Below are positions 5,264-7,924 of a stretch of DNA of 40,220 bases, in pieces. The notes under the pieces were generated by a model. That model saw only the letters and a program-made list of their open reading frames with translations, was not told the DNA's origin and made no database searches. The position numbers and the translations under genes were made by a program. Source of the stretch: a virus (lineage: Duplodnaviria > Caudoviricetes). Where the stretch lies: IMG/VR virus record IMGVR_UViG_3300020440_000033, positions 1 through 40,220 of that record; one strand, written 5' to 3'. Numbering within the stretch: the stretch's first letter is position 1; the number at the start of each line of letters is the position of its first letter.

Positions 5264-5330
5264 GGACTGTTGACAGATCCCTGGTGCGTGGTTCATATTG
5301 GAGGAGTCCCACACGCCACACCTAGGCACC

Positions 5331-5813
5331 GTGACAACAACACAACAACAGAACCACGCCGAAGCCAACGCCACCAGCTACGGCGAAACAATTGAAGCGC
5401 TCTTTGAGTTGCACTGCTGGTGCTTCAGCACCGGGGAAGCACCACATCCCTTGACTCGTGCGGGGGCCGATGTCCTCCGTGACCTTTACTGGGACGCTGA
5501 AACCGGCACGCAAGACAGCCTGAAGGATTCAGTCACTGAATACGTTCAGCAGATGCCTCTGAGCGTTCAAGTGCGTTCAGGCTGGCATTCACCCGGCGAA
5601 ACATTCGAGACCGCAGCATTCGAGATTCTGCTGAGCACTGGCGGTCCCGCTTGCCGCATTCTCGGTGAGCTGGACCGTGGGTCGGTTGCCTGCGCTGGCC
5701 GCTATCCAGTCATTCAACATCGGGACTGGTTCAAGCCGTGGACTGAATCCAATTACAACGTGGACACCGACGCTCTGCTCTGGTTCTGCGAGCAGTTCTA
5801 TTACGGGGAATAA
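5331..5813 (+). CDS. phage hypothetical protein
   Basis: PLSVQVRSGW...FEILLSTGGPACRILGEL...DWFKPW motif of a kind I recall from small phage proteins; start uncertain (track 5298, GTG 5331 fits the TTGACA...CATATT promoter better). Confidence 0.65.
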   Translation: MTTTQQQNHAEANATSYGETIEALFELHCWCFSTGEAPHPLTRAGADVLRDLYWDAETGTQDSLKDSVTEYVQQMPLSVQVRSGWHSPGETFETAAFEILLSTGGPACRILGELDRGSVACAGRYPVIQHRDWFKPWTESNYNVDTDALLWFCEQFYYGE

Positions 5814-5831
5814 AAAGCCCCCGTAGGGGCT
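5812..5831 (-). terminator. terminator between convergent units
   Basis: AGCCCC-CGTA-GGGGCT, with a T5 tail on the minus strand. Confidence 0.7.
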
Positions 5832-5890
5832 CAGGATTGGAGGGCGTCAGCTATGGCGTCCTCCTCAGTCAGGAATGGTCCGAATGTAGC

Positions 5891-6127
5891 TCATTTGCTC
5901 AGCTCCTGGATCATGTCATCGAGTGCTTCGTGATCAATTCGGTGATCGTCAAAGTAGACACCGTCGGGCGTCATTGGCGGCATTACACCATCAACGCAGA
6001 GCCAGATAAAGTCTCTGTAGTGCTGGCACATTATTGCTCCAGAATAGAAACTGAAGTCATTCTGGATCCACATCGCAACGTTCCAGGTCTCATAATTAGA
6101 CCAGCCGTTGTAAGTTTCAGAAACCAT
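5891..6127 (-). CDS. small acidic phage protein (YNGWxNYETW family)
   Basis: YNGWSNYETWNVAMWIQND N-terminal motif, widespread in phage accessory proteins. Confidence 0.75.
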   Translation of the reverse strand: MVSETYNGWSNYETWNVAMWIQNDFSFYSGAIMCQHYRDFIWLCVDGVMPPMTPDGVYFDDHRIDHEALDDMIQELSK

Positions 6128-6178
6128 GATTAGATGAGAAATAGTGAGCCAGAGAATGAACCCCTGGCTCGTTTACGT

Positions 6179-6787
6179 TCAGGCATAAGCGGTCGGATAC
6201 TCGTTCGCGCAGGAGATTAGGTAGTCTCTCAATCGGTCGAACGAGTCTCGCCACGGCGCATTGTCATCACGGGCCGCGAATATACACAACCCAAGATGCT
6301 GCATGGTGCGGACACGGTCAGCGATCGATTCACTGGCCCAATCTTTCTCGATGATCTCGCATTCAAGTTCTGAAAGCTCATCATCAGAGATTAAAGGGTA
6401 GTCTTCAAGCCCCTGGACCGTTTCCAACATGTCATCAGTGACATATCGGAGATCAATACAGATACCCGCACCATTCCAGCCGTACCCGATAGCGTGCACT
6501 GCCTCGTGTGGATCTGGCACGCTTGCCGCATCGATGAAGACACGGTAATTGGCCAGACCCACTAGACCGGTGTCCGCGTAATCACTGAAACCTAGATAGG
6601 TCGGAACGAAACCTAAAGAAAGGTTCCGCCAGCGATCTGCGAGGCAGGCTGCGAGATGTTCATCCGGCGACTGGTGCCACTGGTGCGAACAGTCGCGCTC
6701 TGGCTCGCCGTCTCGGATGAGCACCCAGTGACCTTGACAGCCGCTGAGTGCGTCGATCCGGCGCTCTAGTTCTGGTGACAGCGTCAT
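6179..6787 (-). CDS. hypothetical protein
   Basis: 202-aa ORF in a tight minus-strand operon; SDY...GLANYR and LEDYPLISDD motifs. Confidence 0.7.
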   Translation of the reverse strand: MTLSPELERRIDALSGCQGHWVLIRDGEPERDCSHQWHQSPDEHLAACLADRWRNLSLGFVPTYLGFSDYADTGLVGLANYRVFIDAASVPDPHEAVHAIGYGWNGAGICIDLRYVTDDMLETVQGLEDYPLISDDELSELECEIIEKDWASESIADRVRTMQHLGLCIFAARDDNAPWRDSFDRLRDYLISCANEYPTAYA

Positions 6788-6789
6788 TG

Positions 6790-6993
6790 TCAGTTAATCC
6801 GCGAGGTTAGCCAGGTATGAACTGAATCTGCGAGATCTTCGCAGTCAGCGTCAGAACGGAGTTCAGACTCTATGCGAACAGTGAAACAAAGAGCTTCGTA
6901 AAGCTCTTCATCGTCAAAGTCGCCAGCTTGGACTCGTTCCTGAACCTGAGGAAAGAAGAGGCGGATTAGATCCGCCTGTGTAATGTCGGACAT
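6790..6993 (-). CDS. small acidic hypothetical protein
   Basis: 67 aa, 2-nt gaps to both neighbours. Confidence 0.6.
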   Translation of the reverse strand: MSDITQADLIRLFFPQVQERVQAGDFDDEELYEALCFTVRIESELRSDADCEDLADSVHTWLTSRIN

Positions 6994-6995
6994 TA

Positions 6996-7175
6996 TCAGA
7001 GAAAAGAAGGGAGTTCAACTGGCACGGTTTCGACGCGGTACAGGTACCGATCAGGGTCAATCCGCCGTAGCAGACCAGCCAACCGCTGTGCGTCATCGTG
7101 TCGCCTGAGGCGACCAGATCCCGCAGGGATCCAGCCGCGCTCAGTGCCACGGTACGTGGTGACAAGATGCCTCAC
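6996..7175 (-). CDS. hypothetical protein, 59 aa (MRHLVTTYRGTERGWIPAG...), absent from the ORF track
   Basis: GTG start overlaps the upstream stop (GTGA); TGA at 6998-6996, 2 nt before the next ATG; fills the operon gap exactly. Confidence 0.6.
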   Translation of the reverse strand: MRHLVTTYRGTERGWIPAGSGRLRRHDDAQRLAGLLRRIDPDRYLYRVETVPVELPSFL

Positions 7176-7465
7176 TTTGCTTTTTCCTCGATCTTCTCCC
7201 TGATAGAGCCGATCGATCCTTCAGCGTCCCTGATTAACTCAGAGAGCCAATCCACGGCATGCTGACGCTTAGTCTCATCGTGAGACCATTTAAGGCACCG
7301 AACATAAAAGCGAAGCTCACATTCGATACGTTTGCGCGTCAGACCCGCGACAGTAACGCTGTCACCCGTTTCACTATCGGTGATAATTACATCACCGGTC
7401 GAGAGACTTAGGTGGCAATCTTGCGACTGCATTGTGAACTTAAGGTTCGTAGTTTGCCTGATCAT
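7172..7465 (-). CDS. hypothetical protein, first gene of the putative early operon
   Basis: 97-aa ORF downstream of the structured leader. Confidence 0.65.
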   Translation of the reverse strand: MIRQTTNLKFTMQSQDCHLSLSTGDVIITDSETGDSVTVAGLTRKRIECELRFYVRCLKWSHDETKRQHAVDWLSELIRDAEGSIGSIREKIEEKAK

Positions 7466-7502
7466 TGGGAAAACTTAAGCGGTGGAATTAGGGTTGGGAT
7501 TA

Positions 7503-7615
7503 AGTGAAGAACGCCAGGCACTGTCTGCCCGTTGCCGCTGAGGTTCTCCAGTACAGACCTTACGGTCATCGGTGGATCATCCCAGCTTGGCGGGAGCACC
7601 TGGCACTCCTTCACT
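7503..7615 (-). ncRNA. ~113-nt rod-shaped structured RNA in the early leader
   Basis: ~20-bp closing stem with G-U pairs that only work on the minus strand, nested helices and a GACC-GUAA-GGUC GNRA cap. Confidence 0.6.
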
Positions 7616-7621
7616 GTTCCC

Positions 7622-7685
7622 TATTCAGTTTTCGAGGTGCTAACCGGTCGGCTTGGTGTGCCTCCCGGTTGAACATAGTGTAGCA
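7622..7685 (-). promoter_or_regulatory. extended -10 promoter, boxB-like hairpin and boxA-like antitermination element
   Basis: TGCTACACT (7685-7677); AACCGG..CCGGTT hairpin (7670-7642); GCACCTCGAAAACTGAATA (7640-7622). Confidence 0.6.
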
Positions 7686-7924
7686 AAGAAGTGGCCGTCT
7701 GGATCACCCAAACCGGGGGAAGTGTTCGGAAATATTATTGGCACAGGGAAGACTTAGGGAACCTACTGAATTACCACCAAAAATCACTAATGTACTACCC
7801 CTACATCTTACTGTGCTAGGGGGGAGGGGTCAAGTTTCTGCTGGCGCGTAAACCGGGGGCAAAAATAATACGGATACGCTATTTTTGTGCTAAGTGATAA
7901 AGTAAAGACAAAGCGCAGTCTGTA

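Follow-up and report, generated by a model that had tools for sequence, protein, structure and literature searches.

A conserved boxA-like leader with exchangeable RNA modules precedes five small genes in a probable picocyanobacterial phage

Introduction

Bacterial rRNA (rrn) operons carry a boxB-boxA-boxC signal served by NusB-S10, NusA, NusG, SuhB and S4. The E. coli rrn complex is described as transcribing twice as fast, suppressing pausing and chaperoning RNA folding (PMC8632103). Phages use boxA as well: T7 early transcription by the host polymerase is reported to be boxA-antiterminated (PMC3709561, citing Savalia et al. 2010), and RNase III sites are described in T7 RNA (PMC5829567). Outside rRNA operons, CRISPR leaders and the suhB 5' UTR have a boxA that is given an anti-Rho or autoregulatory role in accounts that concern gammaproteobacteria (PMC5725501; PMC13753749), and the latter account also has B. 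subtilis NusB binding boxA-like RNA, in a species where Rho is dispensable (PMC13753749). The common explanation for boxA and its Nus partners is that they shield transcription from Rho, but picocyanobacteria have retained both boxA and NusB although they lack Rho. Cyanobacteria are reported to lack this factor, and most picocyanobacterial transcript ends are described as not explained by known mechanisms (PMC12642595).

Here we describe a phage leader that probably works like an rrn or T7 boxA leader and is neither an rRNA leader nor a nut/N system. It shares with rrn leaders a boxA of the cyanobacterial form and the order promoter, hairpin, boxA and long helix, as in four picocyanobacterial 16S leaders, an arrangement that needs no phage antiterminator. 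Unlike an rrn leader, it heads small protein genes rather than rRNA or tRNA, its helix closes locally within 126 nt without leader-trailer pairing around a long RNA, and its hairpin and rod do not resemble those of the host. With T7 it has in common a host-type boxA that comes after the putative early promoters for host polymerase and before the first putative early gene, and no recognizable N protein. T7, in contrast, grows in a host with Rho and has its own RNA polymerase, whereas this phage has a sigma factor and gave no RNA polymerase match, and exchangeable structured RNAs lie next to its boxA. The analogy with lambda nut lies in a phage boxA that would recruit host Nus factors on early transcripts, as predicted here; in this leader, however, the hairpin comes before boxA, the place of a short boxB hairpin after boxA is taken by a 126-nt rod, no N-like protein was detected, and the two conserved first genes are predicted to encode folded alpha/beta proteins. 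Like the CRISPR leaders and the suhB 5' UTR, it puts boxA to use outside rRNA. A boxA ahead of early genes is already published for T7; what is new here is that a fixed boxA goes together with a set of uncatalogued RNAs that can be swapped, in a probable host without Rho. In the literature searched, which covered few subscription papers, we found no paper on a cyanophage boxA leader.

Results

A leader between terS and a putative early operon

The window, by which we mean the whole stretch of 40,220 bases that was analyzed, is virus record IMGVR_UViG_3300020440_000033. It is 96% complete and linear without end repeats, and the contig ends of its relatives near terS are scattered. From terS onward (7925; labeled from its place before terL), the plus strand encodes siphovirus head and tail genes, while primase, PolA, a sigma70 factor and ThyX are encoded on the minus strand. 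The leader occupies the gap between terS, from which the element is 240-430 nt away, and five small minus-strand genes (7465-5891). The best NCBIfam model for the sigma factor is Sig70-cyanoRpoD, with a score below cut-off, and its top phage matches are S-CBS1, S-CBS3 and KBS-S-2A; the DUF7249 gene matched 221 phage records, 217 of them cyanophage-named, and terL and portal have cyanophage S-2L as top match. Judged from gene relatives alone, the host is likely a Synechococcus-type picocyanobacterium. Pfam and PHROG gave no phage RNA polymerase match among the scanned ORFs, Rfam families and tRNAs were absent from the window, and neither leader blastn nor terS tblastn matched cultured phages.

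The features discussed below are, from the 5' end of the minus strand:

7805..7833, minus strand: upstream sigma70-type promoter motif TTGACC-17-TAAGAT, presumed active, in a possible tandem-promoter layout
7677..7685, minus strand: extended -10 promoter motif TGCTACACT, with a predicted start near 7670
7642..7670, minus strand: 5'-terminal hairpin in the boxB position, with a 6-bp stem, an internal loop, a 3-bp stem and an A/C-rich loop
7621..7640, minus strand: boxA-like motif GCACCTCGAAAACTGAATAG, given as GCACCTCGAAAACTGAATA at 7640-7622 in the first-pass annotation
7496..7621, minus strand: type-A rod RNA, with a closing helix, an outer stem of ~20 bp, fixed internal loops and an apical tetraloop hairpin
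5891..7465, minus strand: putative early operon of five small genes (97, 59, 67, 202 and 78 aa), the last being DUF7249
6977-6959, minus strand: terminator-like site inside gene 3
6146..6170, minus strand: intergenic CCAGG...TGG hairpin before the DUF7249 gene
5815..5832, minus strand: strong intrinsic-terminator-like operon end, GAGCCCC...GGGGCTT followed by a U run

The first-pass annotation had placed the extended -10, the hairpin, the boxA-like motif and the rod correctly on the minus strand. Its rod (7615-7503) gains an extra GGGA/UCCC closing helix, which brings the true span to 7621-7496 (126 nt). The term early, as applied to the operon, reflects its layout (gene size and position).

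The boxA-like motif is conserved across relatives

With up to 4 mismatches allowed, the degenerate consensus matches the window at the boxA-like 20-mer and nowhere else, and none of 200 local shuffles produced as good a match. Searches with terS yielded 14 viral, 30 metagenome and 3 distant loci. Including the window, 43 leaders were examined; after 14 duplicates or near-duplicates and 2 truncated leaders were dropped, 27 were kept. Five loci had no usable leader (L013, L085 and L086-L088, the last three excluded as terminase sequence instead). Exactly one match per locus was found in 24 of the 26 distinct relatives, always on the minus (sense) strand of the leader, and none elsewhere in 248,920 strand-bases (at most 4 mismatches of the degenerate 20-mer). 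As the consensus was written after the first leader set, in which 10/11 match, the fairer count is 14 of the 15 leaders seen later. Seven relatives match only at 4 mismatches, and two (L004 and L073) have no recognizable boxA. The leader is real, conserved and beyond chance.

The distance from boxA to the ATG ranges from 20 to ~190 nt. In 8 of the 25 boxA-bearing leaders no rod follows, and the first ATG comes 20-22 nt downstream; because boxA is kept in these leaders, its function appears independent of the rod. We found no convincing comparable boxA in five cultured cyanophage siphoviruses. When the window leader is folded in isolation, most of boxA is paired with sequence near the start codon and with the rod end: its GAAAACU (7633-7627) pairs with AGUUUUC (7474-7468) just before the first ATG, a pairing absent in L059.

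Resemblance to host rrn boxA

A scan of species genomes for the motif returned at least 119 loci, among which GAACCTTGAAAACTGCATAG (32 loci) and GAACCTTGACAACTGCATAG (31) were the commonest forms. The resemblance to cyanobacterial rrn boxA that had been proposed for this leader was borne out for both spacer and leader forms: the window boxA agrees at 17/20 letters with the commonest cyanobacterial spacer form, GAACCTTGAAAACTGCATAG, and at 16/20 with both the picocyanobacterial spacer boxA and a host 16S-leader boxA. Its exact 20-mer is absent from the 119 genome matches, and its variant positions all vary among host or phage copies. The boxA of one relative, L080, equals a host leader boxA at 19/20 letters. 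Among 20 hand-picked cyanobacterial loci, 16 lie just upstream of 23S rRNA and one before CRISPR repeats, and three had no Rfam hit; the motif also occurs outside cyanobacteria, in Bacillota and Chloroflexota. Of five picocyanobacterial genomes searched, four carry a related G[AC]ACCTGGACAA motif upstream of 16S, and for each of these four leaders the predicted fold runs from a short hairpin through boxA to a long rod. The phage copies what appears from these comparisons to be the host leader layout, as well as the boxA motif.

Promoters, 5' hairpin and RNA evidence

A conserved -10 element sits 36 nt upstream of boxA, and a TA[CT]A[AC]T hexamer was found upstream of the best boxA-like site in 23/27 leaders; the extended -10 pattern has a single matching site in the whole window. 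A second promoter-like site, TTGACC-17/18-TAnnnT, was detected by script in 16/27 leaders. The 11 leaders missed comprise two in which an earlier TTGACC was caught and nine that are more distant. The 5' hairpin belongs to a loop family common to 7 of the 27 distinct leaders (the window, L001, L004, L005, L006, L008 and L071), in which the loop is kept while the lower stems differ yet still pair. The earlier description of this hairpin as boxB-like holds for its position only; it is unlike host pre-boxA hairpins.

Two further repeats or blocks were seen in this region. A conserved non-coding block upstream of terS (window 7750-7835, minus strand; TTGACCCCTGCCCC...GTAGGTTCCC) occupies the same place in L001-L014 and L057-L083, and its C-rich part is kept even in distant relatives without the -10 box; the block may also serve as a packaging or origin signal. 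In eight leaders (L009, L012, L014, L057, L062, L076, L077 and L083), the unit CTACACTGACAGAGTCAG is repeated, so that -10-like sites stand in tandem with a hairpin after each, much as in P1/P2 promoters.

The sole RNA evidence over the leader is one unstranded contig. A marine metatranscriptome run, selected using this leader region, contains a 167-nt contig identical to 7511-7677, another over gene 4 and four more over late genes at similar depth. Such contigs show presence in an RNA library rather than strand, start or abundance, and DNA carry-over is possible. The depth of the leader contig was 3.4 against 2.8-4.2 over coding genes, contig depth being a poor measure. The contig reaches 7677, 7 nt upstream of the predicted start, which fits either the upstream promoter or DNA. 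From runs X2 and X3 no contigs were obtained, which is uninformative either way.

The rod is a folded, covarying RNA

The 211-nt leader region folds at -82 kcal/mol (z -4.33), and none of 200 shuffles was as stable. For the rod, the minus strand reaches -63.4 kcal/mol with 45 pairs, 5 of them G-U, and the plus strand -54.2. The G-U pairs had been said to fix the strand; the minus strand does fold better, though this does not settle the strand alone. Type A comprises the window, L006 and L059, whose alignment differs by a single 2-nt gap in the apical loop and whose core GAUCCACCGAUG...UGG is invariant in the three sequences.

Compared across homologous leaders, a check that the first-pass annotation had proposed, the rod covaries: 14/44 pairs change on both sides among the three versions, and 94.7% of cells in the consensus structure are paired, in a structure derived from that same three-sequence alignment. 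None of 500 shuffles reached this level, and slid controls (n=3) gave at most 2 double-changed pairs. Many G-C to G-U changes occur among the homologues. The inner UCCA/UGGA pairing described earlier is found in the single-sequence fold, and the three-sequence consensus gives CACCG/UGGWG instead; the modeled pairing register of the core is ambiguous. The outer stem has 20 pairs, with 96.7% of cells paired; RNase III substrates are about 20 bp of double-stranded RNA. Two ORFs of 50 and 59 codons overlap the element, and because the 2-nt indel between homologues would shift either frame, we consider the rod non-coding. The five small phage genes are preceded by a leader that is conserved, folded and non-coding.

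An Rfam search, also suggested in the first-pass annotation, found no relevant family for the rod or leaders in the window, 14 relative loci and 13 loci mostly of a second lineage (described below), where hits stayed at chance level. A model of the rod had no match in 121 host-family genomes and, against 87 and 33 further sources, recovered L006, L059 and their duplicates only. Looser core patterns added no type-A member: they returned one locus, then one true locus of 26, both being the L006 contig.

Several likenesses were set aside. Hammerhead, twister-sister, c-di-GMP-I, SRP and K-turn resemblances of the modules were dropped (no Rfam support; the tandem GA loop is symmetric), and a retron was rejected since the scan of 54 ORFs found no reverse transcriptase. 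An 8-nt complementarity of the rod core to 23S rRNA was judged chance, as was a 12/13 match of the rod stem to a host leader rod, which is missing in L006 and L059.

Close relatives carry different RNA modules in the same slot

Close relatives replace the type-A rod by at least five other RNA modules. We sorted 25/27 leaders by eye into six types (A-F), whose flanks are not conserved as sequence. In type B, 7/39 pairs are double-changed (6 rows, two nearly identical), and in type C, 11/29 (4 rows); types A, B and C keep invariant loop sequences. With the type-A model, type B reaches 26-37 bits, whereas other boxA-only sites do not exceed 25.5, which suggests that types A and B share an outer scaffold. 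Types E and F have their structured RNA upstream of boxA instead. First genes starting with MKTTH and with MKTTVQ each occur with rod types A, B and C. The two, rod type and allele of the first gene, appear to assort independently, and the recurrence of alleles with different rod types points to cassette exchange.

A second phage lineage shows a comparable arrangement in 13 distinct loci out of 33: a -10, a hairpin, boxA and then a branched RNA closed by GGGAG...CUCYC before the first gene (L262-L264, L269, L274, L278, L280, L282-L286 and L294, around 501-640, with L284 at 255; also L042). The GGGAG closing start was partly built into the search pattern. The RNA shares ACAGCCTCCGG with type-E modules, folds differently and has no Rfam match.

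The downstream operon is short

In most relatives a GC hairpin with a U run follows 0.9-2.1 kb after boxA, so that the operons are short. That of the window measures only ~1.8 kb; a strong terminator closes it, and the gene beyond lies on the opposite strand. A similar intergenic hairpin stands before an internal gene in all 19 operons examined, with a U run directly after it in four (L072, L074, L076 and L082). In the window and 18 relatives this conserved CCAGG...CCTGG hairpin is separated from an internal early gene by a stretch that is poor in purines and has no Shine-Dalgarno motif; the hairpin is possibly a processing site or a leaky terminator.

The two conserved first genes are predicted to encode folded alpha/beta proteins. 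No notable PADLOC, Atlas or PDB-sequence match was found for the early proteins, and fold searches gave middling Z values (best 6.3, with rmsd 2.3 over 48 aligned residues, helices only; best 5.5, with rmsd 2.8 over 57 aligned). Neither the 54 ORFs nor the gene 1 and 2 homologues gave a Pfam or PHROG match to an N-like antiterminator, a search that short, divergent N proteins can escape. This agrees with the earlier suggestion that the phage does without an N-like protein, insofar as none is recognizable in these sets. Convergent on the operon terminator is a 171-codon gene (5298-5813, plus strand) with its own near-consensus promoter, TTGACA-18-CATATT, and no PADLOC or NCBIfam match.

Host factors

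The probable host family was represented by 61 genomes around a Synechococcus genome. NusB scored over cut-off in 61/61 of them, with one NusB over cut-off in the hosts. RNase III was found in 15/16 host-family genomes, 10 over cut-off. Rho was over cut-off in 0/61 (best 39 bits vs 509), while the same search found it in 8/14 reference genomes as a control. The first-pass proposal of antitermination, taken in the anti-Rho sense known from E. coli, does not hold for hosts of this kind: if the host assignment is right, the role of boxA is not to block Rho.

Discussion

On balance we think it probable that boxA loads a host rrn-type Nus complex for fast, pause-resistant transcription of the early operon, and that the rod is an exchangeable RNA, most likely for processing or stability. 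Host sigma70 polymerase would start near 7670, possibly also near 7798, and the 5' hairpin may protect the RNA end. NusB-S10 would then bind boxA, and an rrn-type elongation complex with NusA and NusG could form without a phage N protein. Through the operon, this complex would suppress pausing and premature release (Mfd-type, diffuse or weak intrinsic). The rod, an exchangeable cassette, would fold right behind it, most likely to serve RNase III processing or the stability of the early mRNA. With no Rho in the probable host family, the benefit would be pause resistance rather than Rho-proofing.

We favor this account over its rivals because boxA persists where no rod follows, the observation that discriminates among them. 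The four of 19 operons with a hairpin and U run between early genes count for a benefit from read-through. The case for long-range antitermination is weakened by the short operons, and the need for processivity is not obvious in the window, where the operon soon ends in a strong terminator and an opposite-strand gene.

It could instead be that the leader is a small-RNA expression module, which we consider doubtful: the boxA/Nus ring would chaperone a cargo RNA held in a processing stem, and RNase III would release it. The swappable cargo would be an early decoy or anti-defense RNA acting on the host. The variety of the slot speaks for this, with at least six module types, of which A, B and C each covary and keep invariant loops, as do the apparent independence of rod type and first-gene allele, the differently folded GGGAG/CUCCC-closed RNA after boxA in the second lineage, and the presence of RNase III in nearly all host-family genomes searched. 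Yet in 8/25 leaders the structured RNA lies upstream of boxA, beyond chaperoning by a boxA-loaded complex. No terminator follows the rod, and the leader contig is no deeper than those of coding genes, by that poor measure. The full picture, a miniature rRNA-style production line with a fixed boxA, a processing stem and a swappable effector-RNA cargo used against the host in the first minutes, is in our estimate unlikely.

We find it improbable that the boxA RNA acts as a sponge, the bulk early transcript titrating NusB-S10 off host rrn and dampening ribosome synthesis. Tandem promoter-like sites, a boxA conserved while its neighbors vary and a single host NusB over cut-off would suit such a role. 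There is, however, only one boxA per transcript and per genome, always just after the promoter, like a cis-acting loading site, and loss of boxA in E. coli is reported to cost rRNA only 2- to 3-fold (PMC10250234).

We also give slim chances to control of the first gene, in its translation or stability, by boxA and the rod, whether through Nus occlusion, as in E. coli suhB, or through a switch in which boxA pairs with the start region. Such regulation by a start-proximal boxA is described (PMC5725501), the eight leaders without a following rod have boxA close before the ATG, and the GAAAACU of boxA finds its AGUUUUC partner in the window fold. Against this stand the wide range of boxA-ATG distances and the lack of the pairing in L059; repressing the first early gene would also bring no obvious benefit. 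Hardly any credence goes to the element working as DNA (a packaging or origin hairpin by terS) or as a short protein-coding gene: proximity to terS and the overlapping 50- and 59-codon ORFs suggested it, but rod covariation largely refutes it. Five pairs of the window rod are G-U, homologues show many changes from G-C to G-U, an indel between them would shift either frame, and the module is swapped among close relatives.

If boxA does load a Nus complex as we favor, its position before ordinary protein genes makes it a small natural reporter for what that complex does without Rho, with speed, pause suppression, resistance to Mfd or weak terminators and RNA folding as candidate roles that could be read from it. 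The slot itself accommodates six or more structured RNA modules that are uncatalogued and exchanged among close relatives, and covariation supports three of them; were the effector-RNA reading true, they would be an RNA counterpart to hypervariable early proteins.

The boxA motif also occurs in other settings. In L099 (422-720), from a filamentous cyanobacterium and thus a phylum without Rho, boxA lies directly before CRISPR repeats (Rfam CRISPR-DR57), and a similar CRISPR layout is visible by eye near the boxA match in L104 and L119. A 19-nt boxA form is also present in 33 other viral contigs (L015-L047), in many of which it seems to come right after a promoter, while some of the contigs look like Bacillota phages, which suggests that phage use of boxA is widespread.
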